DNA of 32,000 nt from Adhaeribacter aerolatus (GTDB lineage Bacteria > Bacteroidota > Bacteroidia > Cytophagales > Hymenobacteraceae). The notes below the pieces were generated by a model that was not told the origin of the DNA, did not search any database, and saw nothing but the letters and a program-made list of their open reading frames with translations. The translations under genes were made by a program, and so were the position numbers. The DNA lies in assembly GCF_007991635.1 (NCBI RefSeq), contig NZ_BJYS01000024.1, forward strand, positions 88,880-120,879, given 5' to 3'. Below are positions 973 through 25,915 of the stretch, piece by piece; within the stretch, counting starts at the first letter, position 1; every line of letters begins with the position of its first letter.

Positions 973-1869
973 ATGAATTTAGAATTAGTTAATAAAATCA
1001 AAGCGTTAGCAATTATTGCTTTAGCATCTGATGACCAGCTAATTGAAAATATTGTTCTAAAAGGCGGCAATGCCATAGATATTGCTTACCATGGTAATAA
1101 TTCTATTTCCAGGACTTCCTATGATTTAGATTTTTCGATTGAGGATGGCGATTTCCAGGAAGACGAGGATATTATAAGGGAACGCATTCAAAAAACTTTG
1201 GTGCAAACTTTTAGTGAAAACGGTTTCGCCATTATTGACTACAAATTTCTTAATAAACCCAAAGTAGCCACTGGCCCTCATGCTGAGTTTTGGGGAGGTT
1301 ATCTGGTTACTTTTAAAGTTTTAAACCAGAAAGCTTTTGATGAAAACAAAGGCAGTTTAAAAAATCAACGAAACCTGGCCATACCGGTGAAGCCAGGCCG
1401 TTCTTCTGTCGGGCCCTCTCCTACTTTCGAATTAGAGTTTAGTAAGTTTGAGTATGTAGGCCTTAAAAATCCGATTGATTTTGGCGGATATACGATATAT
1501 GTATACGCCCCGGAAATGATTGTTTTTGAAAAGCTGAGGGCAATTTGTCAACAATTGCCCTCATACAGGGAGATTATTAAATCTTTTACCCCGCGACCCC
1601 GGGCACGGGATTTCTATGATATTCACCTTATTATGGAGATGCGTCAAATTGATGTATCCTTGGATAAAAATAAAGAACTTATAACCAAGGTATTTGAAGC
1701 TAAGCGGGTTCCGCTATCATTCATCAAGGATATTAGTATAAATAAGGAATTCCATAAAGGGAATTGGGAAAGCGTTAAAGATACTGTTTCTAAGTTTGAC
1801 GAATCAGAAAACTTTGATTTCTACTTTGATTATGTCGTCAATACTTTCCAGCCGCTTACATTCCCTTAG
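973..1869 (+). CDS. abiEii: AbiEii/AbiGii-family nucleotidyltransferase toxin (type IV TA, DUF1814-like)
   Basis: 298 aa. The N-terminal 'LKGGNAIDIAY...ISRTSYDLDFSI' matches the family pattern KGGtAl...R.s.DlDf. The C-terminal 'RARDFYDIHLI' matches the conserved R.kDlyDl element. The ATG start is at 973. Confidence 0.75.
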   Translation: MNLELVNKIKALAIIALASDDQLIENIVLKGGNAIDIAYHGNNSISRTSYDLDFSIEDGDFQEDEDIIRERIQKTLVQTFSENGFAIIDYKFLNKPKVATGPHAEFWGGYLVTFKVLNQKAFDENKGSLKNQRNLAIPVKPGRSSVGPSPTFELEFSKFEYVGLKNPIDFGGYTIYVYAPEMIVFEKLRAICQQLPSYREIIKSFTPRPRARDFYDIHLIMEMRQIDVSLDKNKELITKVFEAKRVPLSFIKDISINKEFHKGNWESVKDTVSKFDESENFDFYFDYVVNTFQPLTFP

Positions 1870-2722
1870 GATAATACAGCTGCCAGTCCTCCGAAAAATC
1901 TTTCTCCATCATTTCGTAGGTCAGGTAAAATTTAAACGCTTGCTTCCGGCTGCGCAATTCCTCCAGTTTTTTGCCGGAGTAGCCGGCCCGTTCCAGGTAA
2001 AAACCAACGGCCTGGTGGTAAGGATAAATAAAATCCAGGTTGTCTAAAGTGGCCACCAGTTTATTTAGGGAGATACTGGATAAGGCATTTTGGTAAGCTT
2101 CCAGCACCGAGTAAATGCCCCCGGCATAACTTGGGCGTACGGTAATGTCAATCAGGGTACGCTCCAGGTTGGTTACCGGTATATTATCTATAGAATGGAT
2201 GCCAGCTCTGCCGGTGAACATACCATTTAGAATGAGGAAAGAAAAATCTCCGTAAATGGCCTCGGTTATTGCTCGGCGTTGTGGCTTAGCGAAGGCCGCG
2301 TCGATAGCCTCTTGCGTTAGTTGCCGGTTACCACCTGTTTTTTTGCTTTGCTCAAAGGTGATATAAATAGTTTTTGGTACCTGGGTAGTCAGGCCATTCA
2401 AAAACATAGCGCTATAATGGGATAGGTAAGACTTGTTAATCAAAGAGGTCGCTATCTCAAATTCATGCGCATCAGCCGTGATATACCGTTCCTTCTTATT
2501 GATATACCCGTCGAAGAGGATTTCAATTTTAGTCAGAATGCCTCTTTTCTGCAGCTGCTCAATAAATCTAAGGTCAGTGGTAGAAGCCGGTAAATTCCAG
2601 GCAATTCTTCTTTCTTCAAAAATTTCATTAAGTTGTTCGCGGGAAAAGACATTGCGCGGATTTTGTTTAAAGAAAGACTTCATACCACTCTCAGCAATAG
2701 CAAAGCGGGATTTTCCGGGCAT
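1856..2722 (-). CDS. abiEi: AbiEi-like antitoxin / transcriptional regulator (N-terminal wHTH, COG5340-like C-terminal domain)
   Basis: 288 aa. The N-terminal segment 'FSREQLNEIFEE...FIEQLQKRGILTKIEI' is wHTH-like. The C-terminal 'NLERTLIDITVRPSYAGG...AVGFYLERAGY' resembles the AbiEi C-terminal pattern (pErtllD...gg...RlGylLE). It sits next to an AbiEii gene. Confidence 0.6.
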   Translation of the reverse strand: MPGKSRFAIAESGMKSFFKQNPRNVFSREQLNEIFEERRIAWNLPASTTDLRFIEQLQKRGILTKIEILFDGYINKKERYITADAHEFEIATSLINKSYLSHYSAMFLNGLTTQVPKTIYITFEQSKKTGGNRQLTQEAIDAAFAKPQRRAITEAIYGDFSFLILNGMFTGRAGIHSIDNIPVTNLERTLIDITVRPSYAGGIYSVLEAYQNALSSISLNKLVATLDNLDFIYPYHQAVGFYLERAGYSGKKLEELRSRKQAFKFYLTYEMMEKDFSEDWQLYYPKGM

Positions 2723-2745
2723 AACGGTAAAGATTGTATTTTTAG

Positions 2746-2769
2746 ACGAGAAGTATATATACTTCTCGT
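2746..2769. promoter_or_regulatory. Perfect 24-bp palindrome (acgagaagtatatatacttctcgt), 24-47 nt upstream of the abiEi start; candidate operator
   Basis: I checked the reverse complement by hand. The core cgagaagtatatatacttctcg is self-complementary. It overlaps the expected promoter region of the minus-strand abiEi gene. Confidence 0.5.
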
Positions 2770-2851
2770 AAAGTTAATCATTTAAGATGATAAAGTCAAG
2801 TACTGCCTGCTAAGCGGCTGAAAATAAGAAAACGATTGAAATACTCTGAAG

Positions 2852-2877
2852 TATATAAAGTATATATACTTTATATA
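2852..2877. promoter_or_regulatory. Perfect 26-bp palindrome (tatataaagtatatatactttatata); second copy of the aagtatatatactt core, followed by the same gtaaagttaatNattta motif
   Basis: Self-complementary when read by hand. It shares the 14-nt core and the downstream 'gtaaagttaat(c/g)attta' with the 2746..2790 copy. The two centres are about 107 bp apart. Confidence 0.45.
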
Positions 2878-3006
2878 TGTAAAGTTAATGATTTATATTG
2901 TCAAAAGCAAGTAAAAATTATACTGTTAGACTAAAACAGAATACTAGAGGGAAAAATAAGAAATCATATACCGCTGGGACCGTAAAATATATAACCAATT
3001 ACTTAA

Positions 3007-3070
3007 TTAAATAATTAAATAATTATGTAATTATGTAATTATGTAATTATGTATTTAAGTATTTAAGTAA
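3007..3070. repeat. 8-bp-period tandem microsatellite: ttaaataa x2, ttatgtaa x3 (+1 variant), ttaagta(t/a) x2
   Basis: Read directly. There are eight consecutive 8-nt units. The last two overlap the stop codon and the final codons (..DYLNT*) of the serine recombinase gene. Confidence 0.85.
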
Positions 3071-3777
3071 TCAGGTGCCACAAGCTCATTTTTGCTTTCC
3101 ACACAGTATCGTTTAAAGATACGTTGTACCTGGGTGGCTTGAAACGCGCCGCCTTTGCTGGCTCTAAATCCCGATTGGTTTAATTTTTCGGCAATGCTTA
3201 ACCAGGTCAGACCCTGTTCCCGGTAAAGACGAACTAATTCAGCGGCCCGCCTATTGTTATCATTGGTGGCGGCTTTCTTTTTAATAGCTTCCACCCCAAG
3301 CTCCCGACCGGCAGCAGTTAAATTATTTAAGTTGCCCAATTTCTGACCGCGGGCTTTCAAAGCCTGCAGGGCTACCTTGGTGCGTTTGCTGATTTGCTCC
3401 CGCTCGTGTTGGGCCATCGTTCCCCAGATACCAATGTTGAGGGTATTCATTTCGGGAATGTCCAGGCAGAGCCAACTAATGTTATTTTTCTCTACCCGCT
3501 TTTTCAATTGGAACAGAAAGGCCACTTCCCGGCTTAAGCGGTCGAGCTTGGCAATGATTAAAGTGGCATTGTGTTTCTTCGCTTCCAAGATGGCTTGTTC
3601 TAATAAAGGGCGGTCATCGTTTTTGCCGGATTCATTTTCCTTAAATTCCCGGATGATGCTGGCTGGATTTTTAGCGAAAGAAATAACCGCTGCCTGTTGG
3701 GCTTCCAGGCCCAACCCGCTCCGGCCCTGCTTGAGGGTAGACACCCGGTAGTAGGCAATGTACTTTTGATACTCCAT
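3055..3777 (-). CDS. Small serine recombinase (resolvase/invertase family) with C-terminal HTH
   Basis: 240 aa. The N-terminal 'IAYYRVSTLKQGRSGLGLEAQ' is the classic catalytic-serine motif (YxRVSTxxQ). 'LIIAKLDRLSREV' matches the conserved resolvase core. The C-terminal 'LTWLSIAEKLNQSGF' is HTH-like. Confidence 0.9.
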   Translation of the reverse strand: MEYQKYIAYYRVSTLKQGRSGLGLEAQQAAVISFAKNPASIIREFKENESGKNDDRPLLEQAILEAKKHNATLIIAKLDRLSREVAFLFQLKKRVEKNNISWLCLDIPEMNTLNIGIWGTMAQHEREQISKRTKVALQALKARGQKLGNLNNLTAAGRELGVEAIKKKAATNDNNRRAAELVRLYREQGLTWLSIAEKLNQSGFRASKGGAFQATQVQRIFKRYCVESKNELVAPDYLNT

Positions 3778-3900
3778 ATATATATATTATAGCCGCAGGT
3801 AAGGAAATGATTTTTCAGGAAGCAGTTGTACTAGTACAACAGAATCCGAACATTGCTTCCTTATTACCCTTTTTTCAATAATTTTTACTAAAGTAAGCAT

Positions 3901-3942
3901 CATTTTACAAATCAGCAACGTGCGTTCCTGATTTGTAAAATG
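3901..3942. promoter_or_regulatory. 42-bp near-perfect palindrome (20+2+20, 19/20 symmetric) with central TG; candidate serine-recombinase crossover site
   Basis: The sequence is cattttacaaatcagcaacg-tg-cgttcctgatttgtaaaatg. The reverse complement of the right half differs from the left half at one position. It lies 124-165 bp upstream of the recombinase start codon. Confidence 0.45.
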
Positions 3943-4456
3943 ACCAACTTCTCTAAAAAAATAGCAAAAGTGGCGGGCGGACGAAAAGGCTGATGCTTTT
4001 TACAATTATGGAATGAACGTAGTGCTTATGTAAACAGCGGTCCGGCTGAGAAAATTTTACCAAAAAGGAGCGGGTAGCGGAAGAGGCTTCTACGCTTTAC
4101 AATTTCTCATTGTCCGTAGAGCTCATGTAAACAGGTTTAAAAATTTTTAAAAGGCTAAAATCCGGTAAGGTGTGAGGAGGTAAAAGCGGGGGGGGGGGCA
4201 CCGTTTTACTTTGACCTATAAATTATTTCATACTACAAACACCAGGTAAGTAAACGAGCCGGCAAACCCCGGCATAGGATCCTATTTATAATTAGGTAGG
4301 CAGTTTACAATTTAGAAGGTTCCTTTATGATTTGTAATTCTGCTGGTGCCTTTTGATGCTATTGAATAATTCCTAGAAAAATTGCACAAGTGGTATGGGT
4401 AGCAGAAATACCGTGGCTCTTACGATTTTTAATGGTGCATTTATGATTTGTAATTT
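3922..4456 (+). repeat. Degenerate tandem array of five units (about 98, 98, 202 and 116 bp, plus a partial fifth)
   Basis: Unit landmarks recur: (g)cgtt(t/c)(a/c)tg(a/g)tttgtaa(a)at ... aaaaa(t)(a/g)gcaaaagt(a/g)gcgg ... gatgctttttac(a/c)att. Unit boundaries are near 3922, 4019, 4117, 4319 and 4437. The third unit is expanded and carries the G11 tract. Confidence 0.7.
4188..4198. repeat. Homopolymeric G11 tract
   Basis: Counted from 'taaaagcggg ggggggggca'. It replaces the G-rich core (gcgggcgg / gcgggtagcgg) found in the neighbouring repeat units. Confidence 0.9.
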
Positions 4457-6435: not shown

Positions 6436-6678
6436 CTAAATTAAAATCGGATAGAGTCCTCTCGATTTCTGCTGCTCCTGCTCTATCCTAGCCCTGGCCT
6501 GCTCCTGGATGGCTGCTACCCCGCTGTCTTTTACCGCATTACAATAAGCAAAATTTTCCTTCTGCTCCCGTTTATAGCCGATCTGCCGCCCGAACGCCTC
6601 TTCTCCCATCCGAACGAACGCTTCCCCGTCAAACATCCTCGATTTTATAGGTACATGTTGTAGTTTGCTATATAACAT
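6436..6678 (-). CDS. Doubtful small ORF (80 aa), possibly a gene remnant
   Basis: The ORF is GC-richer than its neighbours and has a low-complexity E/Q-rich C-terminus. Its start abuts the left arm of the 6685..7059 inverted repeat. No recognisable motif. Confidence 0.25.
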   Translation of the reverse strand: MLYSKLQHVPIKSRMFDGEAFVRMGEEAFGRQIGYKREQKENFAYCNAVKDSGVAAIQEQARARIEQEQQKSRGLYPILI

Positions 6679-6684
6679 AGGGCT

Positions 6685-7059
6685 TAACTACTCAATAGAA
6701 CCATTTTCCCCGCGAGTCGTCAATATAGCTAATTTAACTATTATAACTGGCTGTGCTTAGATATTCCGGTGACGCTTAACCAGTATGCTCCGGATTATCC
6801 AGTTGCTCTCTCAGCAGATAGGTAGTAGTTGAGTAATGGGAAGAATTAATCAACCTTATCTCTTAGCCGGCAACGCATACCTGGCATTTTATCAATTGGC
6901 AAATAGAATTTAATTTTAAGGAAAAGCGATTCACCCATACTTTTGATATAGAGGCTGTAATGCACCTTTTCAGGAGCTGAGAACCAATTATTTACCAGTA
7001 ACACGCAATTTAAATGGTTTTAGGAGCGCCGCGGGGAAAATGGTACGTTTGAGTAGTTA
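6685..7059. mobile_element. About 375-bp non-coding element bounded by 30-bp imperfect terminal inverted repeats (27/30); MITE-like, or a long-range RNA stem
   Basis: The left arm is taactactcaatagaaccattttccccgcg (6685..6714). The right arm is cgcggggaaaatggtacgtttgagtagtta (7030..7059). The hand reverse complement gives 15 + 1 + 11 matching positions. There is no ORF of 60 aa or more inside, and I saw no clear target-site duplication. Confidence 0.35.
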
Positions 7060-7073
7060 GACCCCATTGAGAG

Positions 7074-7186
7074 GCGTTTATGGTTTGTAAAATCACCTAC
7101 TACCCTAAAAAATGGCAAAAGTAGCGGACTGACAAAAAAGCCGATGCTTTTTACCATTCCTGAATGTGCGTTTATGGTTTGAAAAT
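7074..7186 (+). repeat. Dispersed copy (one full unit of 94 bp plus the start of the next) of the 3922..4456 repeat family
   Basis: The sequence gcgtttatggtttgtaaaatcacc...aaaaaatggcaaaagtagcggac...gccgatgctttttaccattcctgaatgtgcgtttatggtttgaaaat aligns by eye at roughly 80% to the 3922..4018 unit. Confidence 0.7.
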
Positions 7187-7535
7187 AAATACTGATTAAT
7201 TAGGTGTAGGTGGTATATAAATCCAGGGAAGATGGCGTGTTATCACCACTCAATGAAAAACCTGCTGCGGTTGGCGCACGATTAGCTACCACCGGATTTG
7301 GAACAGCGCCTTGGCGAATGGGTGCCGGATGATAACCAGCCGGGTTACCATGAATCTTGGCATAATGGTACGCCGGCTCAGGTTTAGGATAACAAAAGGG
7401 AAGAAAAACTAAAACAACGTGCCAATAGCAAGCAACGCGCTTTCACCCAACGCAGAAGAAGTGATAGGGCCCAGCGTTTACAAAATACTTAAATCCACCA
7501 CTTCCACTTTTAGCTTACGATTTACATTTAGCCTA

Positions 7536-9488
7536 TTATTTCTTATCGACGTAGGTTTTATCTTTTTTGTTTGGTACTTGGCTTGAAGGCTTATTGCTCT
7601 TAGGATATTTTTCTTGTTTTGAATCAATCAAAGCAGAACCTAATAATATTGTAAAACCCACATAGGAGATAAATATTAACCAATGAAGTGGAGTAATTCT
7701 TCTTGTGCCATATCTAGTTACTACATAAATGCAAAGAACAAATAACCCTAAACTAAAAGCAAATACAACCATGAATAGCATTGCCTGACTAAAGTTTTCA
7801 ACATTGTCATAAAGCTGAATGTTCCCTATAGCAAATAGAACTATAGCAGCAAAAATGCTTAATATTTCAATTTGATTTCCATTGTGTTGACTTATTTCTT
7901 TTCTTATAGATTCAATTTTGGTCCTTTCTTCATTTATTCTTTGTTGAATATCAAATTGGCTTTTTAGACTATTTAATTCATTATACATAAAATCAAGTTC
8001 TCTTCTTGCCTCTTCATAATTAATAGGAAGTATAAATGATGATGCTAAGAATATCGGTAGATCTTCCCCATCGATATTAATTCTATTGAATAAAGTGCAT
8101 TCCTTTTTGGGTAATTGAAAAGCTAAGAAATTTTTATCTTGGCACCATTCAAAGTTCTCAAATGACCGTTTTAGATTTTTTTCTAATTTGATGAAGAGCT
8201 TTTGAATCAGATTGACTTCTATACTATCTTCATTCAACCCTTTTTTTATCGATTTTAATAAATATTGACAAAAGCGGTAAAATGGAAAGTAGTTATAAAT
8301 ATGCGTCTCCTGTTGAACTAGTGAAATTCTATCTAAATACTTTTCTAACTCATTTGTAAATTCAATGGAAAATTTATTTTTATAGATTAACAGTGATAGC
8401 CTGTTATTGAGAAAGTAATTATATGATATATTGAAAGCTTTATTATCAAATTCCCGTTTTTGTAAGTATGGCCTTTCTTTAAAAACATCAGAAAAGCTTT
8501 CAGTTAAATTATTTACCTGTTCAAAACTTCTATTTTGGTCTTTATAGTAATTTATTAAAGTATGATAATCTCCCAGAAATAGTTTCTCTTTTGCTCTGAT
8601 TTTTTCATTGATTAACCTAATTTGGTTGTCATAGAATGGACCAAACCTGTCGCCAGAATAATAATGGTTCTCCGAATGTTCAAGGAATGGCTTAAAATAA
8701 GAGATTGATTGCTTAATTTCCTCTAACTTAAGTTCTTTATCTTTGTAATTATGGATATAGAGGAAATTCTTTTTGCCTTTTTCTAATCTATATAAAATTT
8801 TAAAAAGAAGATAATTACACTTATCAACTAAGATATCTGCAATCTGAGGCGTACTCTGGGAAAAATTATATGAATCATCTTCAAGTTTTTTTTGCAGCTT
8901 TAACAATACTTCTAAGTATTCCTTTTTTACGGCTATATTATGATCTATCCGTGCAAGTTGAATGTTTATTCCAAATAATTGACTTAAGTCATGAGTAATT
9001 GTATTCAGTGGATTAGAATTTGGGGCTATATCGTCTTCCGTGATTACATCAAATAAGTGAATAGATTTCGTAGGAGAAAGCCTATATTTTATCTGGCTTA
9101 TCAATAGCTTGAATTGAGAAATGGACTGTAATACAGGTAGGCTGAAGGAGCTTTGTAAGTCATCGAAAAGCTCATTTACAATTTCAATTTTGTCTTCTCC
9201 TAAAAATGGAATTCCTGAAATTATTTCGTTTATTTTAAGCTTCAGAGCATCTATTCTTTTCTCTAACTCGTCTATTTGAATGTAGTCACCTGTTATAATA
9301 GATTTATTAAGTGCTGAATAAATGGACTCGGAAGCCCTATTTATTTCCAAAATTGATATTAATGTACGATCTTCTTTTTGGTTTTCAGAAGCTGTAAGAT
9401 AGTTGGAAATTGCACTTTGAGAGTATAGTGTAGCTAAAGAATCAAGCTTTGTAATAGTGTCGTTAAAATAGAGAAAGCTTTTATGCAC
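7536..9488 (-). CDS. 650-aa protein: large all-alpha/coiled-coil N-terminal region plus three C-terminal TM helices and a Lys-rich tail; candidate membrane effector
   Basis: The GTG start lies inside the upstream gene's last codons (AGTGCATAA, 8-nt overlap). Hydrophobic segments are 'IEILSIFAAIVLFAIGNIQLY', 'AMLFMVVFAFSLGLFVLCIYVV' and 'LHWLIFISYVGFTILLGSALI' (about 7626..7871). GC is about 25-30%. No catalytic motif recognised. Confidence 0.7.
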   Translation of the reverse strand: MHKSFLYFNDTITKLDSLATLYSQSAISNYLTASENQKEDRTLISILEINRASESIYSALNKSIITGDYIQIDELEKRIDALKLKINEIISGIPFLGEDKIEIVNELFDDLQSSFSLPVLQSISQFKLLISQIKYRLSPTKSIHLFDVITEDDIAPNSNPLNTITHDLSQLFGINIQLARIDHNIAVKKEYLEVLLKLQKKLEDDSYNFSQSTPQIADILVDKCNYLLFKILYRLEKGKKNFLYIHNYKDKELKLEEIKQSISYFKPFLEHSENHYYSGDRFGPFYDNQIRLINEKIRAKEKLFLGDYHTLINYYKDQNRSFEQVNNLTESFSDVFKERPYLQKREFDNKAFNISYNYFLNNRLSLLIYKNKFSIEFTNELEKYLDRISLVQQETHIYNYFPFYRFCQYLLKSIKKGLNEDSIEVNLIQKLFIKLEKNLKRSFENFEWCQDKNFLAFQLPKKECTLFNRINIDGEDLPIFLASSFILPINYEEARRELDFMYNELNSLKSQFDIQQRINEERTKIESIRKEISQHNGNQIEILSIFAAIVLFAIGNIQLYDNVENFSQAMLFMVVFAFSLGLFVLCIYVVTRYGTRRITPLHWLIFISYVGFTILLGSALIDSKQEKYPKSNKPSSQVPNKKDKTYVDKK

Positions 9489-10044
9489 TTTGTAAACTGA
9501 ATTGCTTGTTTTCAGATTTAATCATTTCGTTTGGGATTTTGAGGCTATACTTATGGAATGACCTTGCTAATTTATACATAGCTCTCCATGAATACCATGA
9601 ATGGCTTAGTTCTACCAAGTCAATAGCCATATAATTGATTAAATCCTTATTTTTTGATTTTATTATTTGGAAAGAATTCAATATTTCCCTTTTTATAATT
9701 GGGTCTAAATTGGTAAAATACTCTTCACTATGTTCTTTAATAATATTTAATCTTTGGTTGGTTATCTCACAATAATTTAAATTTTCCAAATTTTTATAAA
9801 TATCGCTTTCTACATGGCCATAGGGCATTGCCCAGAAATTATCAAAAACACCCAGCAATCCATCCTCCCTTTCATTGGCGGTACTTGCACAGACAAAGAA
9901 GTGTAATTTAAGGACTTTAAGTCTGCTCAGATCATTTTTGTCTAACCCTTCTTGATTATTTTGCTCTTTATACCAAGTGACTAACTGTTTTATAAAAAAT
10001 TCAAATGCTTTAATTTTGCAGGTAATTCCTTGTAGTTGAAGCAT
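9481..10044 (-). CDS. Panacea (DUF4065 / SocA-PanA-like) domain protein; candidate antitoxin
   Basis: 187 aa. 'LSRLKVLKLHFFVCA...GLLGVFDNFWAMPYGHVESDIYKNL' parallels the recalled Panacea pattern klqKLlYfa...f.AW.yGPV.p.vY. It is translationally coupled to the downstream 650-aa gene. Confidence 0.55.
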   Translation of the reverse strand: MLQLQGITCKIKAFEFFIKQLVTWYKEQNNQEGLDKNDLSRLKVLKLHFFVCASTANEREDGLLGVFDNFWAMPYGHVESDIYKNLENLNYCEITNQRLNIIKEHSEEYFTNLDPIIKREILNSFQIIKSKNKDLINYMAIDLVELSHSWYSWRAMYKLARSFHKYSLKIPNEMIKSENKQFSLQSA

Positions 10045-10576
10045 ATATATAATAATCGTTTGTCTATTAAAGTAGCTATACGATAGACTTTAAGAAATGT
10101 GTTCTGTAGGAAGTAGCTTAGGCCTTATATTTAATTCAAATATAATAGATGGCCAATCATTTACAAGTGAAGATTTTTAGTAGTTGATAAAACCTTTTTA
10201 ACGTTTAAGTAGGTGTTTTTTTCGAGAAATATATCGGTTAAGTTTTTACTCGTATTCCAACCTTAATAGAATTTGTTACCCGGTAAGAGAAAAAGGCCAT
10301 GTAAATAGTCAATTTACAAAGCAATATGCATTTGTTTAGGGAGCAGGGACAATCCTTGGCCGTTCGTCCAAGCGGGGATTGTAGCGTCTGCCTGTACACC
10401 ATGGGCAAATTCTTGGCCGAGGTCTGGTACCAGGTAGAAAATAATCAAATAGAGGTAGTAAGAAGCTCTAAAAGTATGATTTGCTTGGAGCCCTCTTTGG
10501 CGATGGTAGACCTCTCCGACATCTGCCATTAAGCTTGGAGGTAATCATCCTTTCACCAGGCACCCTGATATCCCTT

Positions 10577-11431
10577 CTATTGCGTTAACCCTTTATCTAC
10601 TGGCGCCTCCAGGGCTACTTGCAACGGCTGAGAAAGCGAATTTAGTAAATCATAACCGGTTGCTCTTTCAATGGCATCGATACTGGTGCGGTAAGAACCC
10701 CAATCCGCCCGCACGGTTTGGCTGTTGGGCGTATTCACCGCGATGACTCGCGTGCTGCTAGTAATCCGGTTTAAATCATTCGGGCCTTCCGGCAGCACTA
10801 CCAGCACATTCCAGATTTGCGCCGGCACCGTGACCCGACCCGCAGTAAGGGTTTGTTTGGGGCCATTACTGCCAGTACCCCCGACCCCGTAATTGCCCAT
10901 GATAACATATACTTCATTACCAGCTTGGACTAAATCGCGGGTATACTCTTCCAGATTGGCCCACGTTTCCTGGTTATTGTTGGGAGCCTGGGGAATCATA
11001 TTGGTCATCAGGAAAGTCGCCGAATTATCTGCGGCTGACCTGGTTCTATCGGCGGAGGGTACATTGTGTCCCCGGTCAAAGCCACTGCCGCTATAAGCCG
11101 TTGGGGTTACCCGGTACCAGCCGGCTGGCAAGGTATTATCCGCCCGGAAATCATCCTGTCGGGGAGCATTGCCCAGCCAATCCGGACTCACGTGCCAGCT
11201 CACCCAATTAGGCGTGCCTCTATCCCGGCTTTAAGAAAGCGTGTACTGTGGTTTCTGTAGAAGAAAGTTATTCGCATTCACTTCGTCCGGGGTCGCCTGG
11301 CTGGGATTACCTAGCAACAGGTGCTCGTAGGGAATCAAATCTTTGGGAGCCGTGGGTGTTACTTCGCTTTCCTGACAGCCGGTAATCAGTAAGAGCAGGA
11401 AGAATAGAAGGTAAAGGTTTTTGTGGAACAT
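10577..11431 (-). pseudogene. DNA/RNA non-specific endonuclease (NucA / Endonuclease_NS family) lipoprotein gene, interrupted by a single in-frame TAA at 11231..11233
   Basis: The N-terminal ORF (11231..11431) carries a lipoprotein signal 'LLLLITGC'. The C-terminal ORF (10577..11203) carries the 'FDRGHNVPSADR' DRGH active-site motif. 11431-11203 = 228 = 3x76, so both are in the same frame. The 27 nt between them read SRDRGTPNW with no further stop. Confidence 0.8.
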
Positions 11432-11496
11432 GAAGTGAACGGAAGCTTTAGGTTTTAAGGTAATTGTATTATATTGAAATAAGGTTAAAAAGATGC

Positions 11497-11510
11497 TTTC
11501 CGGCCGGAAA
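11497..11510. promoter_or_regulatory. 14-bp perfect palindrome tttccggccggaaa upstream of the nuclease gene
   Basis: Read by hand. It lies about 70 nt upstream of the nuclease start codon (11431, minus strand). Function unknown. Confidence 0.3.
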
Positions 11511-11922
11511 ACTTGATGGCCCGAGGTAAATCTGTTTCATGGCTAAAGCATGGTTCTGATGGCAGCATTCATTTCCACCCATTATCTATTATTACTGGCC
11601 AGCGGGCTCAAAAATCTGGATGAACTGAATAGGCTGGAAAAAAGCTGGCGAAGCAGAAACTGAAGGTCATGGGGCTCGATAAGCATCTACCTAGCTTGAA
11701 TTGAGACAGTGTCCTTGGCTTAGTTTAAGTTGTCGTGATCCTTTGGATCCGCTAAACCTATTGAACCGAAAATTTTGGTACTTTATCTTACCTACCATAT
11801 TTCGGAAGCGCTTCCCTATTATATAGAAAGGCTGGAATTTCAGAAATAAGATTGCTGCAAAGGGTAAAATGTAGCGTATCTTTTGAACCATTACACTTTA
11901 TCGATAATGTAAGATTTGGCTA

Positions 11923-13650
11923 TTAAAGCCTTTCGCTTTTTATAAAAAATTTTTCAACCGTGCTTTTTACTTTGCTGTAATTGTTTTCTTCTAATAATTT
12001 AAGCAAGCTCTGTCCATCATAAAAAGCATTTAAATTTTGTGGTTTAAATGAACCATTGTTTATTCCGTTTAAAAAATTTATACCGTCTTCATAAAAGGAA
12101 GCAGAAGTAATAAAACAACCTCTGAATTTTTTCCCAGTATCTTGAATTTCTTTTTGAAAATGCCTTTTTGCAAATGGCAAAGTACGTCTAAAAAACCAGC
12201 TTAGAGTGTTTTTAGTATCTGAACTACCAATAGGAATTTTTGATAATGAAGAGTACCCTTTTAGTTCAACTATCAAAATCTCATTAGGGTTAGAAGATTT
12301 AATAATATAATCATACTCATAATTTTCTTTTCCACCCTCAGGCTTTACTATTGATAAAGTCTTACCATGTAGAATTTCTGCACTACTATAATAGTGCTTT
12401 AGTAGTGGATACAATAGGAATTCAAATAAAACTCCTCGTATGTCTTTTAAGCTATCTTCTTGTCCAGATGTTCTAATCGTAGTTAGTGCAGATTCAATTG
12501 TTACATTAAAGTCATCACTTATTGCAGCCACTTTTTTTAGCTGTAAAATGTTGAGCTTTTCGACAACATCGTAAATTGTTGTTCCAAAAATAGACCCTAA
12601 ATCAAAAGCAATAAATCCCAGTGAGCTTATTTTCTCTAAAACATCTACTGCTATTGTCTTGTAAATAATGATAGGAAGAATTTTGCGCCTTCCATTTTTA
12701 ACAGCATTTAAATTAATTTGTATCCTATTATAAAAACCGTCAAGATCTATTTGGGAGTAGTCTCTACTGATAACTACGTCTAAGACAACTAAGGTTTGTT
12801 TCTCTATAGTATCCGCTTTTTTCCCAAAGGTTGAGTTTATTCCAGTTGTTTTGGTATAGGCGAAAGCATCCCAAACCAAATTATTTTGCTTTGCGCCAAT
12901 TGAAGGTGTTTTCTTGTTGCGGTAAATTGTCTTGTAATTATCTATTATATTACTTTTTTGTAACCACCGCAGAATGTCTGGTAAAAACATCCCATCTATA
13001 ACCATCTTAGAAAAGTGAGCGCTTAGTAAGCTTTCTTCCTTACCTTCTTCCTTTTTACTTTCTTCCTTTAAAATATATTTGATATTATTTGAATCAGTCT
13101 TTTCATATATAAATTTCATTAATCTAAGCTCTTTTATTATTTCATCCAGTGTATTTACCTTTGTAGATGATTTTTCAAGTGGAGCAGCGACGATCTTTAA
13201 TGCTTCATAGTAGGATATAACTCCGTCATTTATATCAATTGCTTCTAACAATCGATAAATTGGTGGGCGATGCTTTTTAGAAACTTCTTTAACCAGGGAT
13301 AGAGTTAACCCATCCCTAGGATTTAAATATATAAATTGACCATTACCAAAGCTTAAGGGATTAGATGAGACGAGTATTCCTTTAACAACAGTTCGTTGAA
13401 TGATTTTTCTAGCATTATCATCCTTTATCTGGAATGTGTTTACTAACTCTTTGGTTAACTCCTTGCCTGAAAGATATCTTTTATCACTAATAAGCTTAGC
13501 TATATAAACCTCATATTGATTGAGTTCATTACTAAGTAGCTTTAATGTTTCTTGTCCCACTGCCCTTATAAATTTTATATTGCTAAATATACCGCAAACG
13601 TAAAAAGTTGAAATGTTGTAGTTTTTATTTAATAACATATTGTTAATCAA
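11923..13650 (-). CDS. 575-aa protein with a winged-helix-like N-terminal region and a C-terminal Mrr-like PD-(D/E)xK restriction-endonuclease domain
   Basis: The C-terminal 171 aa (about 11926..12438) read 'FEFLLYPLL' (helix Glu), 'YEYDYIIKS' (Asp strand), 'ILIVELKGY' (ExK), then 'GCFITSASFYEDGINFL...FYDGQSLLKLLEEN'. This parallels the Mrr_cat pattern fiTts.Ft..A..fa...liDg..L..ll. GC is about 30%. Confidence 0.6.
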   Translation of the reverse strand: MINNMLLNKNYNISTFYVCGIFSNIKFIRAVGQETLKLLSNELNQYEVYIAKLISDKRYLSGKELTKELVNTFQIKDDNARKIIQRTVVKGILVSSNPLSFGNGQFIYLNPRDGLTLSLVKEVSKKHRPPIYRLLEAIDINDGVISYYEALKIVAAPLEKSSTKVNTLDEIIKELRLMKFIYEKTDSNNIKYILKEESKKEEGKEESLLSAHFSKMVIDGMFLPDILRWLQKSNIIDNYKTIYRNKKTPSIGAKQNNLVWDAFAYTKTTGINSTFGKKADTIEKQTLVVLDVVISRDYSQIDLDGFYNRIQINLNAVKNGRRKILPIIIYKTIAVDVLEKISSLGFIAFDLGSIFGTTIYDVVEKLNILQLKKVAAISDDFNVTIESALTTIRTSGQEDSLKDIRGVLFEFLLYPLLKHYYSSAEILHGKTLSIVKPEGGKENYEYDYIIKSSNPNEILIVELKGYSSLSKIPIGSSDTKNTLSWFFRRTLPFAKRHFQKEIQDTGKKFRGCFITSASFYEDGINFLNGINNGSFKPQNLNAFYDGQSLLKLLEENNYSKVKSTVEKFFIKSERL

Positions 13651-14108
13651 ATACTTATTTTTTTAATTAGATAAATATTTGGTCCGTAATGCATTTTAAT
13701 ACTTAATAATTGTCACACCAGTAATTTAACAAGTATAATTGTCCTTATGATAGCATGCCAAGACACCCTGGTACATGAGGCGTGCGAGGCTGTCTGCTGA
13801 AGCATGTGGCTTATATGGATTGTGTGTACCCAGCATGGTACGGGTATATTTTGGAAGGAATATACTCAGATTATCCAGCGGGTGCAAATACCGTATTGGC
13901 GAGCCGCAAGCTGGTTTACCACAGGTTAAGCAGTAGAGGACCGAGCACGGGAGTGCGAAGGTGCGGCTGCCTCAGGATAGCCCAAGATAGAGCAGGAGAA
14001 GAAGCAGTAGCACCAGATTCAGGAACGGGAGCAACGAACTGGGGCCGCGGCATTAGAAAGTAGAGAGGTAGTGTCTAAGAAAGAGTGTAAATGGGTTCGG
14101 GAGTGTAT

Positions 14109-16136
14109 TTAGATCCTCAAAAAAGTAATCTCGCAATCTTTGCACTTCCGTTTTTCCTGATAAAGGTCAGCAGCATTAAATTTACCCTCGTACCGATCGA
14201 AAATATCAAGCCCGCGGCCCAGGTTTATTTTCCAGCCATTATCGGCCATAATGCTGCGGTCATGGACACTCCTGAACTCATAGGTTAAGTGTATACCTAT
14301 ATCAACCATGTTTTCTTTTAGGTCATCAAAATTGGCAATAGCTTCGGCCATGCGGTCTTCCGTATTCCAGGTTACAATATGCAAGTCTATCTCCTCATCG
14401 GGTTCCTTTATTTGTTCCAGCATAATGCAAAACTCCAGCAGGTTTTTAAACTGGTAATGCATTCGGATATATGGGTCCTGCAGAGTAATTTTGGAAGCGC
14501 CTTTCAAGTGTTGACCGAATAGCTTCCGATAAGAAATACCTGTTTGGTTATCCTTGATTAAGACCTGGTGCGGAGATGGATTTGCTTTAGATTCCTGGAT
14601 TACAAAATCATTCGTTTCATTTAGAGCCTCCTCTTTTTCCTCGGCCTCTTTTTTCTTATCCTTCAGGGCCGCCAAGTAATTTTGCATTTCCAGCGTTTCA
14701 ATAGATACTTCCCGACCACTAGCTTTTAATCGGTAGGTAAAATTAACCGGTTCGTTGCGGAAAGTTTCGTCAATGATGTATAACTGGTCCTTAACCCGCT
14801 TTCGGCCTTCTATGGCAAAATTGAGCAGCTCAATCAATTCATCCTGTGTTAATTCTTTGTGCGGATATAGTAATTTTACCAGTCCGGAAAATGACTTTCG
14901 GATAGCAGTTTTATCACGGGTAGATAAGGAACCGTCCAAATCTATAACCTGGTCCATTAAACCACTATAATCCGCTTTTCGCAGTTCGCGCAGGATTTCA
15001 GCTATGTAATCTACTATAAAACCATAGCTCGTGGAGAAAACCGAGTTCTTCAGAATTTTCACTTCCCAACCGGGTATGTACATATGCATCCGGTCCAGGA
15101 AAGCGCCTTTAATGTATCCGTCCGGGATGGATTCAAATAAATGGGAGTTCTTCAGCATGTAAGGCACCGTATGTTTGGTATTGCCGACAAAAGCTAAAGA
15201 AGCTGTAGCTTGGTAAGTCTCCTTGCCTCGGTTGAAGGATTGGTTAGCCATGTAGTTTTGCATAATTTTAACCAAATCACCGTCCACCCGGCGCCCTCCT
15301 ACTTCCTGCTCAAACTCGTCTAAAGCAATCACATCCCAGTATCCGACCAAGCCAATGCGGTTACCAGTATTATTTACAAATAACCTAGCTTTAGAAACAT
15401 CCCCACCAGAAACCAAAACACCATGCGGGGAAAGCTCCGAAAAAATATGGGATTTACCGGTTCCTTTTGGACCAAGCTCAATAAAATTGTAATTGTTTTC
15501 TACGTGCGTAATTAGCCTTGAAATCTGGATTAGTTTTCCTCGCTTGTTAAAAAACTCGGGGTTTAATCCTATACTGTGCATGAGCAAGTCTAGCCATTCA
15601 TCACTAGTGAACTCCTTTCGGGCCTCCAGGTAATCATCAAGCCTTACATTAGAAACCTGGATAGGTTTTATATCTTCTATCAACCAGCGCACCTGGGCAT
15701 CAGCCGCATGGGTGTACCCCATGGTTAGTATACACCACACACCGCCACCACTTAGCAGTTTCTGGTGCTCCATCACCATTTTATCAGCTATTGGTACATG
15801 GTTGATACCTAAATTGGCAAACTCGGCCTCGTAAATATTAGCCCTATCATTAAGGGAAACATTTACTTTATCGATGATTTTATAACTGCCCTGCTGCCGG
15901 ATGGTTGACTTTACTATTTCGGCTTCGCTTCTATGAACGTAATTATTTTTAATAACCGTTTTTACTTTCTCAATACCCGCTTTTATAATTTCTTCATCAT
16001 TAATAGCACAGTACTGTCCCAGTAAATATTCCAACACATAAGTAGGTACCACGGCATTGCCTTTAACACTGGAGGTTAAATCTTTGCGTACTACTTTCCC
16101 TTCAAAGTATTTTAAAATTTTATCTTGTAATTCCAT
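14109..16136 (-). CDS. brxL: BREX BrxL: BrxL N-domain plus AAA+ ATPase, with a non-canonical MIT_C/PLD-fold C-terminal domain
   Basis: The N-terminus 'FEGKVVRKDLTSSVKGNAVVPTYVLEYLLGQYC' is the BrxL signature. Walker A is 'GPKGTGKSH' and Walker B is 'VIALDEFE'. It is the last gene of the BREX operon. Its start overlaps the pglZ stop by 1 nt (TAATG). Confidence 0.85.
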   Translation of the reverse strand: MELQDKILKYFEGKVVRKDLTSSVKGNAVVPTYVLEYLLGQYCAINDEEIIKAGIEKVKTVIKNNYVHRSEAEIVKSTIRQQGSYKIIDKVNVSLNDRANIYEAEFANLGINHVPIADKMVMEHQKLLSGGGVWCILTMGYTHAADAQVRWLIEDIKPIQVSNVRLDDYLEARKEFTSDEWLDLLMHSIGLNPEFFNKRGKLIQISRLITHVENNYNFIELGPKGTGKSHIFSELSPHGVLVSGGDVSKARLFVNNTGNRIGLVGYWDVIALDEFEQEVGGRRVDGDLVKIMQNYMANQSFNRGKETYQATASLAFVGNTKHTVPYMLKNSHLFESIPDGYIKGAFLDRMHMYIPGWEVKILKNSVFSTSYGFIVDYIAEILRELRKADYSGLMDQVIDLDGSLSTRDKTAIRKSFSGLVKLLYPHKELTQDELIELLNFAIEGRKRVKDQLYIIDETFRNEPVNFTYRLKASGREVSIETLEMQNYLAALKDKKKEAEEKEEALNETNDFVIQESKANPSPHQVLIKDNQTGISYRKLFGQHLKGASKITLQDPYIRMHYQFKNLLEFCIMLEQIKEPDEEIDLHIVTWNTEDRMAEAIANFDDLKENMVDIGIHLTYEFRSVHDRSIMADNGWKINLGRGLDIFDRYEGKFNAADLYQEKRKCKDCEITFLRI
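14112..14570 (-). other. Segment encoding the BrxL C-terminal 153 aa: MITD1 C-terminal (MIT_C) PLD-like domain homologue
   Basis: 'NQTGISYRKLF...ITLQDPYIRMHYQFKNLLEFCIML...IDLHIVT...VHDRSIMADNGWKINLGRGLDIF' lines up motif-for-motif with human MITD1 as I recall it ('ATGFSYESLF...[22 protein letters not shown]...IHLLTS...[23 protein letters not shown]'). A K/E-rich linker precedes it. Confidence 0.7.
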
Positions 16137-18676
16137 TAAAAGTCTTGCTCAATCAGGGTATTGTTACTTACCGGTTCTTCAATTAAAGTATTCAGGTTAT
16201 CTTCTTTATCAAAAATCTTGAGCTTCAGATAAGTCTCCTGCGCGGCTGAATGCAACAAATTAAATTCTAATTTGTAGATGCGCTCAGTAGGCATACTAGA
16301 AGTTGAATTTAATAACAGGTTTGCTTCGTTGCTAACCAGTTCGGAATTTTTGTATATACCTGCCACTAACTCTCGTTCTTTCTCGGTCCGGGATACCTTG
16401 TTTTCCTGGAGGATACTTACCCGCATCACATTAGATACAATTTTGAGCGGAGCACTCTTTACCAAAACCGGTTTCACTTTCTGGGTAATATCCTGACGCT
16501 TCCGGGAGCTCTCAATAACCGGCACAACCAGTTCCTGTAAGCTGCCACCCCCATGCACAAACTGGTGTCCTACTCCCTGCTTTTTATACCGGTTAACCGA
16601 TGCCGGTATAACCACGGATAAAGAATCAGTAAAAAGAGAGGTAGCCGATAATTGTATCTTATAACCCAAGGTTGGTTGCCCCAAATCATCCACTATCTCA
16701 TACCGGTTATGGGTAGTAACTGCTTTTAAACCTGTGGCATTTTCCTTATCTTTTTCATCTATTTCCCGGTCATTGAATATGAACCCATGGTCAGCGGTGA
16801 TAATGACCCGGGCAACATTCAAGGAGCCATGTAATTTCTTCACCAATAATTTTAATTCCTCAACAGCTTCTTTGGCGGCAGTTAAAGTTTTACGCTCAGA
16901 TACCTTTTTGTCCCCAATCATATCAATGGCATCGTGGTAAATGTAAACCAGCTTAGCCTTAAATATCTCCCTATTCTGCTCCTGATTGTTCTGTTGGATA
17001 TCTGAAAATGGAACTACTCTTGCCTCTGGTTCCGCTTCAGTCAGCAATTTTTCCCGGTTTTCCAAGCCACTTGTAGAGAGTCCATCGATGGTAATGGCTC
17101 CCTGGTTGAATGCGAACTTTTTACCCGGGAGTAACTGTGCCATACCAATACTGGTTTTAGATGGTATAGAAGCTAATTGGTAGCGTATATCGGCGCTGTT
17201 TTTAGGGTCGCCGTGTAGTTCGGACAGCAATTCTTCTGCTACTTCATAGCGCAATGCATCAGAAATAATAACCACTAATTTTTGTTCAAAAGGCTCTATT
17301 TCCCTTTTATAAAACTCGTACTGCTTCGGAATATTTAGCCCTTTATAATCAAATTGATAGGCATTTAGACATTTTAACCATTCCCGATTACTTTTCTCCA
17401 GGAATTCTTCATAACGCTTGTTTACTAGACCAACCAGCTCTTCAAGTTTTATGTGGGTAGGAATTTCGGTATCATCCATACTCCGGTAAGCACACAAAGC
17501 CCGTCGATAAGCCTGGTCAATTTTATACCATTCCGAAGTATAAACTTTTACATAATCTTCTGGTTTATCTAAGATGTAACTGGAGATAGAATTTACCAGC
17601 TTCATCATTTCGGCGGCATGCAGCATAAAAGTTAGGCAACTATTCAGAGAAGCAGTGGTTGGCTCGGATGTACTTATTTTTTCCAGCCATTGGATAACAG
17701 CTTGTGGGTTATAATCCAGGTTTGCTGCCTGCTCAGCTATTAGTTGCCATTTCATGGGTAGGGTGTAAAAGGCAAAATCGGCCGTGGCTCCGTAAATCTC
17801 CAGCAGCTTAAGCTCCTGAACTGAGCCGGCGTTTACCTCAACGGCTTCCTGAAATTGTGCTCCTAAACCATCTTTCCGGGCTGCTTCTTCCTGCAACTGG
17901 TTCAGGCGGCTAAGTACTGCTGCCTTTTTAATTTTAAGACTTTTATAAGGATCTTCGGCAGCTGCATCCGGAATAAACTGGGCAAGGGAATTGTACTTAA
18001 AAACCTTTAATAGGTTGGCAAGCTTATCCGGCTCCAATTCATTTATTTCCTGGTCGAAATGTTGCTTTATTTGTTTGTTGAGCCACTCCAACAAATTGTT
18101 TTCGCGCACTTTCCGACCTACACGCTTTAGTTCTTCTTCTTGGCCGGGTCGTAGCAACGAAAACAATTTTGCCAACAGCAAGGACCAGTTTTCCGGAGCC
18201 TTAAATTTAAGGAATGCCGAAAATAAAGCCTGAACCAAGTTGGCCTCATCTAAAGACTCAGGTTTAAGTATGGGAGCACAAACTTCCTGCACCGAGCTGT
18301 ATTTCAGCTCGCGCATGTAGCGCTTTATAAGTGGCTGATGGTGGCGCTGCAACCGGTACTCTTCCATAAAAGCAGCTTCATCGTCTAGCAATAATTCTTT
18401 GTTGGCCAGGAGCAAATCCAGCAAAGGGAAGTTCAAGTATTCATCCTGTTTTTTGGGGCTCTCTTGGTTTAGGTACAAAAATACTTTTTGCTGTTTCCAC
18501 TCACCATGCAGCATGGCTTTCATGTAGAAATAGTTTTGTTGAAACTGAACTACCCGGATATCTTTTAAGGCTAATGCCGCTACCTCTTCTTTAAAATCTG
18601 CTTCTTTATCAAAAAAAAACAACACCCGTAATTGGGGGTGTGTTCGATAATATTTCTCTATTTTCTCCTGCAGCAT
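16136..18676 (-). CDS. pglZ: BREX PglZ (alkaline-phosphatase-superfamily PglZ domain protein)
   Basis: 846 aa. 'VVIISDALRYEVAEEL' and 'VIITADHGF' are PglZ / alkaline-phosphatase-type metal-site motifs. It sits between pglX and brxL. Confidence 0.9.
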   Translation of the reverse strand: MLQEKIEKYYRTHPQLRVLFFFDKEADFKEEVAALALKDIRVVQFQQNYFYMKAMLHGEWKQQKVFLYLNQESPKKQDEYLNFPLLDLLLANKELLLDDEAAFMEEYRLQRHHQPLIKRYMRELKYSSVQEVCAPILKPESLDEANLVQALFSAFLKFKAPENWSLLLAKLFSLLRPGQEEELKRVGRKVRENNLLEWLNKQIKQHFDQEINELEPDKLANLLKVFKYNSLAQFIPDAAAEDPYKSLKIKKAAVLSRLNQLQEEAARKDGLGAQFQEAVEVNAGSVQELKLLEIYGATADFAFYTLPMKWQLIAEQAANLDYNPQAVIQWLEKISTSEPTTASLNSCLTFMLHAAEMMKLVNSISSYILDKPEDYVKVYTSEWYKIDQAYRRALCAYRSMDDTEIPTHIKLEELVGLVNKRYEEFLEKSNREWLKCLNAYQFDYKGLNIPKQYEFYKREIEPFEQKLVVIISDALRYEVAEELLSELHGDPKNSADIRYQLASIPSKTSIGMAQLLPGKKFAFNQGAITIDGLSTSGLENREKLLTEAEPEARVVPFSDIQQNNQEQNREIFKAKLVYIYHDAIDMIGDKKVSERKTLTAAKEAVEELKLLVKKLHGSLNVARVIITADHGFIFNDREIDEKDKENATGLKAVTTHNRYEIVDDLGQPTLGYKIQLSATSLFTDSLSVVIPASVNRYKKQGVGHQFVHGGGSLQELVVPVIESSRKRQDITQKVKPVLVKSAPLKIVSNVMRVSILQENKVSRTEKERELVAGIYKNSELVSNEANLLLNSTSSMPTERIYKLEFNLLHSAAQETYLKLKIFDKEDNLNTLIEEPVSNNTLIEQDF

Positions 18677-18718
18677 TTACTTCTTTCTGATTCAACTAAT
18701 ATTTGAATTTTGGGCTTA

Positions 18719-22351: not shown

Positions 22352-22361
22352 GGCTTAAAAC

Positions 22362-25910: not shown

Positions 25911-25915
25911 GGGTA

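Follow-up and report, generated by a model that had tools for sequence, protein, structure and literature searches.

The two genes described here lie in a 32,000-nucleotide stretch of DNA from Adhaeribacter aerolatus (Bacteroidota, Hymenobacteraceae), which was analyzed as a whole (hereafter, the window), and encode a 187-residue Panacea-family protein (PanA) and, directly downstream, a 650-residue partner with three predicted transmembrane (TM) helices near its C-terminus. Most likely, they form a toxin–antitoxin (TA) or phage-defense pair. More specifically, we consider it somewhat more probable than even that the pair is a self-contained type II PanA–PanT TA module, in which a membrane-acting partner is restrained by PanA; the role of such a module is probably abortive infection. 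The gene family is not new, having been predicted in 2022 as PanT cluster T15 (Kurata et al. 2022), and what goes beyond that work is a set of 781 partner representatives, a pair assigned to Ignavibacterium, the architecture and conserved motifs of the partner, and orphan PanA genes on phage sequences. An initial annotation of this DNA had presented the pair as a candidate new PanA-type TA or abortive-infection module within a defense island. This interpretation is partly supported, in that its sequence-testable parts were borne out, but its claim of novelty and its view of a neighboring nuclease had to be corrected. The module comprises the following features.

9481-10044, minus strand: panA-like gene (AAE02nite_32070), an ATG-initiated open reading frame (ORF) of 187 amino acids (aa) for a stand-alone Panacea-domain protein.
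7536-9488, minus strand: partner gene (AAE02nite_32060), a GTG-initiated ORF of 650 aa for a membrane-anchored protein of the cluster T15 family.
9481-9488, minus strand: 8-nucleotide (nt) overlap of the panA stop with the partner GTG, reading ...CAAAGTGCATAA.
10137-10144, minus strand: candidate Bacteroidota-type -7 box TATATTTG, 93 nt upstream of the panA ATG, to which we give low weight.

Both products are identical to the A. aerolatus proteins with these locus tags, and the two ORFs, the GTG start and the 8-nt overlap, as originally annotated, were confirmed on the minus strand. The GTG start is credible because the N-terminal sequence of the partner is shared from residue 2 with its two closest homologs (MHKSF and MYKSF) and because, in one of these two (locus L012), a GTG immediately follows the PanA stop codon, so that the L012 partner ORF cannot begin further upstream. 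Translational coupling of the two genes, which had been proposed from the overlap, is supported by that overlap together with the tight junctions conserved in 17 intact pairs from other genomes (see below). The G+C content is 27.8-32.4% over positions 7501-10000, close to the 25-30% estimated earlier for an AT-rich block, as against 44% (7001-7500) and 50-52% (10501-11500) in the flanks. An ORF of 650 codons in DNA of 29% G+C, with hundreds of full-length homologs, is not a chance ORF. No flanking direct repeats that would mark the AT-rich block as an insertion were found. The -7 box is the sole minus-strand TAnnTTTG within 7116-12585, and this motif is not enriched in the window (36 observed vs 41.7 expected); a scan of the window for sigma-70 promoters and terminators gave nothing above shuffled sequences, the sigma-70 model being ill-suited to Bacteroidota.

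The identity of the family was established through an excerpt of Dataset S1 of Kurata et al. 2022 (PMC8832971; PNAS 119:e2102212119), in which Flavobacterium seoulense EM1321 is entered with the PanA WP_051627437.1 and the 'hypothetical protein' WP_035656793.1, toxin cluster pT14/T15, order A|T, distance 11 and the remark 'notest'. In the assembly of the same strain (locus L027), exactly 11 nt separate a PanA gene from a downstream gene of 675 aa, which the hidden Markov model (HMM) of the partner family matches with E 2.4e-117. Since the entry and the locus agree, the partner family corresponds to the predicted PanT cluster T15, which is thus the same gene-pair family as the window module. 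A T15 entry of the excerpt for Alistipes onderdonkii (distance 3) likewise agrees with locus L029 from the human gut, where the gap is 3 nt. Among the entries listed in the excerpt, 13 belong to T15, all from Bacteroidetes, all marked 'notest' and with PanAs marked 'noNTD' (stand-alone); Adhaeribacter and Rufibacter were not found in the excerpt. T15 is not discussed in the text of the paper (PMC8832971), and neither the NetFlax supplements nor a literature full-text search for T15 accessions yielded a further mention of the family. The name of a 'new' module therefore does not apply.

The 187-aa protein matches PF13274 (SocA_Panacea, DUF4065) over residues 45-152 (profile positions 2-111 of 113) with E 3.5e-5 and 25.1 bits, and the Panacea identity suggested in the initial annotation is supported more firmly at the level of its family. 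Thus, a homology search gave 61 relatives, 172-228 aa in length and with E values from 1e-19 to 1e-80, many of which carry precomputed PF13274 matches or the source names SocA or Panacea, and 44 of the 57 aligned subfamily relatives matched PF13274 when scanned singly (E<=0.01, best E 9.6e-9). The motif quoted earlier as the Panacea core, LKVLKLHFF...FDNFWAMPYGHVESDIY, was found in the protein. Moreover, when the subfamily profile was aligned by hhalign with a canonical Panacea protein (L010:418-987), the three core motifs (LK..KL..; aromatic-x-x-G-P-V; SH...W) fell in register with E 0.0038, pairing LSKLKVLKLHFF with LSKTKLLKLLYI, AMPYGHVESDVY with VWKFGPVSEELF, and LVELSHSW with LVSYTHRVNSPW; the subfamily has His in place of the usual Panacea Pro (YGHV). 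The Panacea core (about aa 45-152) stands between an N-terminal helix (aa 7-28) and C-terminal helices (aa 151-177), which are conserved features of the subfamily's own. Because of these helices, and because the subfamily HMM misses the canonical Panacea gene adjoining the module in L010, the sequences support placing the small protein in a Panacea (PF13274) subfamily of its own.

The protein also matches NCBIfam SocA_antitoxin (NF047745; E 1.2e-8, 34.9 bits) and phrog_1281 (E 8.8e-7). SocAB of Caulobacter, the founder of PF13274, is a type VI TA system, in which SocA serves as a ClpXP adaptor and not as a binder-inhibitor. The Panacea/SocA domain is shared with it, but the partner has no SocB match, and the 34.9 bits of the small protein fall well short of the 190 bits set as equivalog cut-off for NF047745, so that this protein is not a SocA ortholog. 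An AlphaFold2 (AF2) model of the protein reached a predicted local distance difference test score (pLDDT) of 93.4; a Foldseek search of the PDB with this model gave no match at E<=0.001, and a sequence-profile search of the PDB with the subfamily found nothing. A weak match to the winged helix-turn-helix of BrxC (PF25791) was seen in 8 of 57 subfamily members at about residues 19-87 (window protein, E 0.029), and the N-terminal part of the subfamily may be similar to a winged helix-turn-helix.

The pairing of the two genes, their adjacency in other genomes having been anticipated in the initial annotation, proved to be obligate across the loci collected. A PanA-subfamily gene lies directly upstream of the partner gene on the same strand in all 24 distinct loci with upstream DNA, which come from several Bacteroidota orders and include one pair assigned by NCBI to Ignavibacterium. 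All seven non-identical homologs obtained by a word-indexed search have a 182-189-aa PanA-subfamily gene directly upstream; the pair also occurs in four species-representative genomes (Hymenobacter crusticola, Rufibacter sediminis and two Bacteroidota metagenome-assembled genomes) and in every metagenome locus with upstream sequence. Conversely, five look-ups that started from PanA (Ignavibacterium album, by NCBI assignment; Flavobacterium covae; Albibacterium bauzanense; F. seoulense; and one metagenome protein) all led to a following partner member of 596-682 aa. Junctions lie between -14 and +19 nt in the 17 intact pairs and are often of the form TAATG or TGATG, 8-nt overlaps being found as well, and the two proteins co-diverge, with their pairwise identities correlated at r = 0.88 (Mantel p ~2e-4). 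Since the flanking genes vary between loci, the conserved unit consists of two genes. One locus, L010, carries tandem PanA modules, namely a canonical Panacea gene (189 aa) with a soluble 146-aa partner (418-1430), followed by a subfamily PanA with a 638-aa membrane partner (1905-4381).

In several loci (L006/L007, L017, L035, L037, L038, L039 and L041), the partner gene carries a frameshift or is broken into 2-4 pieces. PanA is intact beside the disrupted partner in L006, L017, L035, L037 and L039, is itself split in L041, and falls outside L038, which has no upstream sequence; the frameshift in L006 and L007 lies at an A9 run. These disruptions could reflect toxin decay, phase variation or sequencing error. 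Their use as proof of toxicity was rejected: the two genes differ 3.4-fold in length, and with this taken into account the excess is not significant.

The partner was analyzed through an AF2 model built from 8 sequences (pLDDT 76.3; predicted template modeling score, 0.72; all-alpha with one beta hairpin), hydropathy and family alignments, which together give the following division of the protein.

7884-9488, minus strand: cytoplasmic all-alpha domain, aa 1-535 (AF2 model and alignments).
7626-7868, minus strand: three predicted TM helices, about aa 541-560, 567-589 and 600-621 (Kyte-Doolittle hydropathy).
7539-7625, minus strand: Lys-rich C-terminal tail, aa 622-650 (29 aa, 9 K/R).

Within the modeled structure, an N-terminal helical bundle (aa 1-137), a central helical subdomain with the beta hairpin (aa 165-480) and a 42-residue stalk helix (aa 491-532) precede the three hydrophobic helices. 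The distribution of K+R, with 4.4 before TM1, 0.9 in loop 1 and 2.7 in loop 2, favors a topology with the N-terminal domain in the cytoplasm and the C-terminus outside. The word-indexed search had found 8 relatives, and an exhaustive profile search gave 781 partner representatives (clusters at 50% identity) at E<=1e-3, of which 354 reach E<=1e-30; a length of 590-680 aa, an end-to-end match and three C-terminal hydrophobic segments at equivalent positions are found in nearly all. The helical region of about 530 residues followed by three TM helices, as described in the initial annotation, is indeed kept across about 145 representatives, and the Lys-rich tail also noted there is present in the window protein, but is conserved in the family neither in length nor in sequence.

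The most conserved positions in the alignment of 145 representatives are G67, K223, L227, K230, N361, S365, N399, S483, P488, E541, F546, A548, F552 and F583. The soluble domain contains the motifs LSGEY, DKCNYL..K..R, HY, YKD, FD..NY..NN..S, Q.ET.I.NYFP, N.EW, FQLP..EC and SSF.LP.NY, and in the TM region F546, F552 and F583 are conserved at >=98% and E541 at 92%, together with A548 and, at a loop, R592. TM1 and TM2 are thus among the best-conserved 20-residue blocks of the partner, on par with the best soluble motifs, and for this reason the TM module looks functional rather than a mere anchor.

No family was assigned to the partner in Pfam, PADLOC, NCBIfam or PHROG, and no housekeeping family was found in the Pfam scans, in line with the earlier annotation. 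Pfam matches to ABCC10_N, MFS_1, DUF2157 and 7tm_3 were rejected as compositional, being sub-threshold, confined to the TM region and inconsistent among members. A sequence-profile search of the PDB with the partner family found nothing, and Foldseek with the 650-aa model gave no PDB match at E<=1e-3, only generic helical repeats (best E 0.05, TM-score <=0.2). The one real match in BFVD is A0A8S5VY37 (634 aa, E 8.9e-7, without annotation), which looks like a member of the partner family in a viral metagenome record.

Because of its size and conservation, the cytoplasmic domain appears to do more than anchor the protein; it is probably a regulatory, sensing or oligomerization platform, or it might be the true effector. 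In the latter case, the 535-aa domain would be an enzyme or ligand-binding module of new fold acting on a membrane-proximal target such as a lipid, nucleotide or nucleic acid, the TM helices would serve for localization, and PanA would be its inhibitor or sensor. Such a role would account for the near-invariant polar residues (K223, K230, R234, Y276, H309, K313, K316, Y358, N361, N362, S365, Q392 and N399), for a domain whose size greatly exceeds that in the validated membrane PanTs (small peptides in many cases), and for a fold without a solved relative. We nevertheless consider it clearly unlikely, because no catalytic motif or enzyme-family match was recognized in the partner, conserved acidic residues are few, and conservation of TM1 and TM2 at the level of the best soluble motifs would not be expected of a mere anchor.

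Two observations on phage sequences fit a defense role of the PanA–PanT module. First, a phage-like metagenome contig (L019; JGI 3300029892, Ga0246235_101009), with genes for an exonuclease, NinG/Rap, NinB/Orf and a DNA methyltransferase, contains a 1.1-kb stretch (2326-3426) that is 99.7% identical to positions 6481-7582 of the chromosomal, Ignavibacterium-type locus L018. The shared stretch consists of part of an Rrf2 gene, the whole of PanA (181 aa; Ignavibacterium album according to NCBI) and, from the partner gene, no more than its first 36 nt; it may represent an antitoxin captured by the phage or else a chimeric assembly. Second, the crAss-like phage cr128_1 encodes, among small auxiliary genes, a 97-aa ORF (gp_25416; L042 3989-4282, MT774392.1 36789-37082) that matches positions 5-87 of 180 of the PanA-subfamily HMM, that is, its N-terminal half, with E 1.6e-25 and includes the FDNFYAMPYGPVESDVY motif; by its sequence, this ORF is a candidate truncated antitoxin decoy. 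The partner gene was not found in 50,697 phage records, a tblastn search with the partner gave no match in the phage and plasmid collections, and a scan of viral contigs with the partner alignment gave no relative. The orphan or truncated PanA copies on these two phage sequences may act as decoys.

The genomic surroundings of the module were compared between the window and other loci. The main neighbors in the window are as follows.

973-1869, plus strand: AbiEii.
1856-2722, minus strand: AbiEi-like gene.
3055-3777: serine resolvase.
10577-11203, minus strand: Endonuclease_NS gene (51% G+C).
14109-27162, all on the same strand: BrxA, BrxB, BrxC, PglX, PglZ and BrxL, a complete type 1 BREX system.

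The neighborhoods of the other loci contain:

L001 and L020: integrative elements.
L003: Abi_2, type I HsdR, an NB-ARC protein and Fic.
L008: a resolvase.
L010: a second PanA pair.
L013: an integrase.
L018: plain housekeeping genes.
L022: CTD1, MComp1 and SMC.
L024: SIR2.

By raw count in a small sample, the module seems frequently to lie in mobile elements or defense islands: defense or mobile-element genes adjoin it in the window and in L001, L003, L008, L010, L013, L020, L022 and L024, and are absent from L018 and L027. This context fits a mobile defense gene. For the window itself, the defense island proposed earlier stands as regards BREX and AbiE but not as regards the nuclease: the Endonuclease_NS gene is preceded by an in-frame upstream ORF with a lipoprotein signal (LLLITGC; region 10577-11431, minus strand), and an in-frame stop lies between them (...QYTLS*SRDRG...), so that it is a pseudogenized secreted non-specific nuclease and not a defense nuclease.

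The same context bears on an alternative in which the genes are a genuine PanA–PanT pair whose role is to stabilize (addict) the mobile element or island that carries them, rather than to defend against phages. Indeed, integrases, resolvases or replication genes that belong to integrative elements are often neighbors of the module (L001, L008, L013 and L020), a resolvase is present in the window, no PADLOC model exists for the pair, and PanA–PanT modules have been found near transposons and prophages as possible addiction modules (Kurata et al., PMC8832971). The module is, however, also found beside BREX, AbiE, Abi_2, type I restriction–modification, NB-ARC and SIR2 genes, and the orphan PanAs on phage sequences suggest a phage counter-measure. 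We therefore judge stabilization as the sole role to be unlikely; addiction and defense are not mutually exclusive.

In the reading that we prefer, a PanA-restrained membrane toxin, panA and the partner gene would share one operon transcript and be translated in a coupled manner, and PanA would bind the cytoplasmic part of the 650-aa partner, which would thereby be kept inactive. Loss or displacement of PanA, either by host shut-off or proteolysis in the course of phage infection or through sensing of a phage product by PanA, would free the TM1-TM2-TM3 module on its long stalk helix, and the inner membrane might then be depolarized or permeabilized, with a growth stop or an aborted infection as the outcome. 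Experiments on related systems provide precedents. Stand-alone Panacea antitoxins neutralize membrane-depolarizing PanTs by contacting the segment before the TM region, as for PanT D11 of B. choladocola (PMC10440598), and the PanT of Helicobacter sp. 13S00482-2, with an N-terminal coiled coil and C-terminal TM helices, depolarizes cells (PMC8832971).

Several points weigh against this reading. The toxicity of the partner, its binding and neutralization by PanA, its membrane target and the defense against phages are features that we infer, and 8 of the 25 PanT candidates tested in E. coli by Kurata et al. were non-toxic (PMC8832971). The window PanA itself scores 0.6 bits under the PF13274 gathering score (25.1 vs 25.7), and PADLOC-DB 2.0 has no family matching either protein at E<=1. 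The copy in L018 sits amid housekeeping genes, the junction in L019 was not found in IMG/VR and that contig may be an assembly chimera, and the excess of disrupted partners has P ~0.37 by a hand binomial calculation once gene length is considered. Finally, a pore-former would need far less than a conserved cytoplasmic region of about 535 residues with specific polar motifs, so that the effector activity could reside there.

Some of these points would suit a different relationship, in which the partner is a non-toxic membrane protein, serving for example in superinfection exclusion at the membrane or in signaling, and is regulated, sensed for or assembled with the help of the Panacea protein. 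This would agree with the harmless third or so of PanT candidates in E. coli noted above, and with the proposal that Panacea is primarily a sensor domain (Ernits et al., PMC10440598). Against it, the gene order and the tight coupling, and the fact that in none of 24 loci does the partner lack a PanA, are typical of toxin control, PanA is retained in several loci where the partner is pseudogenized, and orphan PanAs on phages fit the neutralization of a harmful effector; we therefore regard a non-toxic partner as very improbable.

By description, to which the comparison is confined, the pair resembles the validated membrane PanA–PanT systems of Helicobacter, B. choladocola (D11), E. coli and Bartonella in combining a Panacea antitoxin with a partner that has C-terminal TM helices, and the Helicobacter PanT in having a helical or coiled-coil N-terminal region before them. 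It differs from them in size, many validated membrane PanTs being small peptides (PMC8832971), whereas the 650-aa candidate combines three TM helices with a globular, all-alpha domain that is conserved and spans about 535 aa. A broader likeness exists to RmrT of RosmerTA, RexAB and the TM effectors of CBASS and Pycsar, in which a small sensor or inhibitor accompanies an effector that presumably collapses the membrane potential through its C-terminal TM segment, and which are located, like the present module, in defense islands or mobile elements; the RmrT of phage Kita depolarizes cells and defends against phage (PMC10440598). Unlike these systems, the window pair is known from sequence alone, shares no homology with them, has no PADLOC match and uses a different antitoxin or sensor domain.

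A bolder reading, which we hold tentatively and consider rather doubtful as a whole, is that the T15 partner is a widespread abortive-infection effector of Bacteroidota with a new fold, in which the 535-aa domain would sense infection and gate a three-helix pore, PanA would be the safety catch, and the orphan or truncated PanAs of phages, including that of the crAss-like phage, would be decoy antitoxins. If so, the family would define an uncharacterized axis of the phage–host arms race in human gut and soil. If the partner is a membrane toxin controlled by PanA, the validated PanTs, so far small peptides and single-domain enzymes, would come to include a protein of 600-680 aa with a conserved domain of unsolved fold. 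As the kind of system is known and the family was predicted in 2022, the advance would lie in characterization and not in a new principle. The 781 representatives of the family have so far been covered by no model in Pfam, PADLOC or PHROG; with such a model and a tested function, many Bacteroidota genes, including those of gut taxa, could be annotated, and the orphan PanAs on phages, one of them crAss-like, provide a concrete and testable hypothesis of counter-defense by antitoxin mimicry.

Further observations concern the surroundings of the module. In L022 (Albibacterium bauzanense), the module is followed, about 2 kb further downstream, by the trio of CTD1, MComp1 and SMC_N (11508-14525), which is predicted to be a conflict system. 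In the window, where no tRNA and no Rfam family was detected by scanning, the AbiEii and AbiEi-like genes are convergent with overlapping 3' ends, unlike the usual AbiEi–AbiEii operon order, and a 257-aa ORF upstream of AbiEii (70-843, plus strand) has no family match. Between BrxL and the nuclease pseudogene, a 575-aa ORF (11923-13650, minus strand; 31-33% G+C) belongs to no Pfam or PADLOC family and shows a weak GntR/PdhR-like match at its N-terminus (E 6.7e-4); it may be an uncharacterized BREX-associated or independent defense gene. Downstream of the module, in a GC-richer and ORF-poor region, a 38-nt inverted repeat (6677-6714 and 7030-7067, 84% complementary) encloses 315 nt and may be the remnant of a small mobile element.

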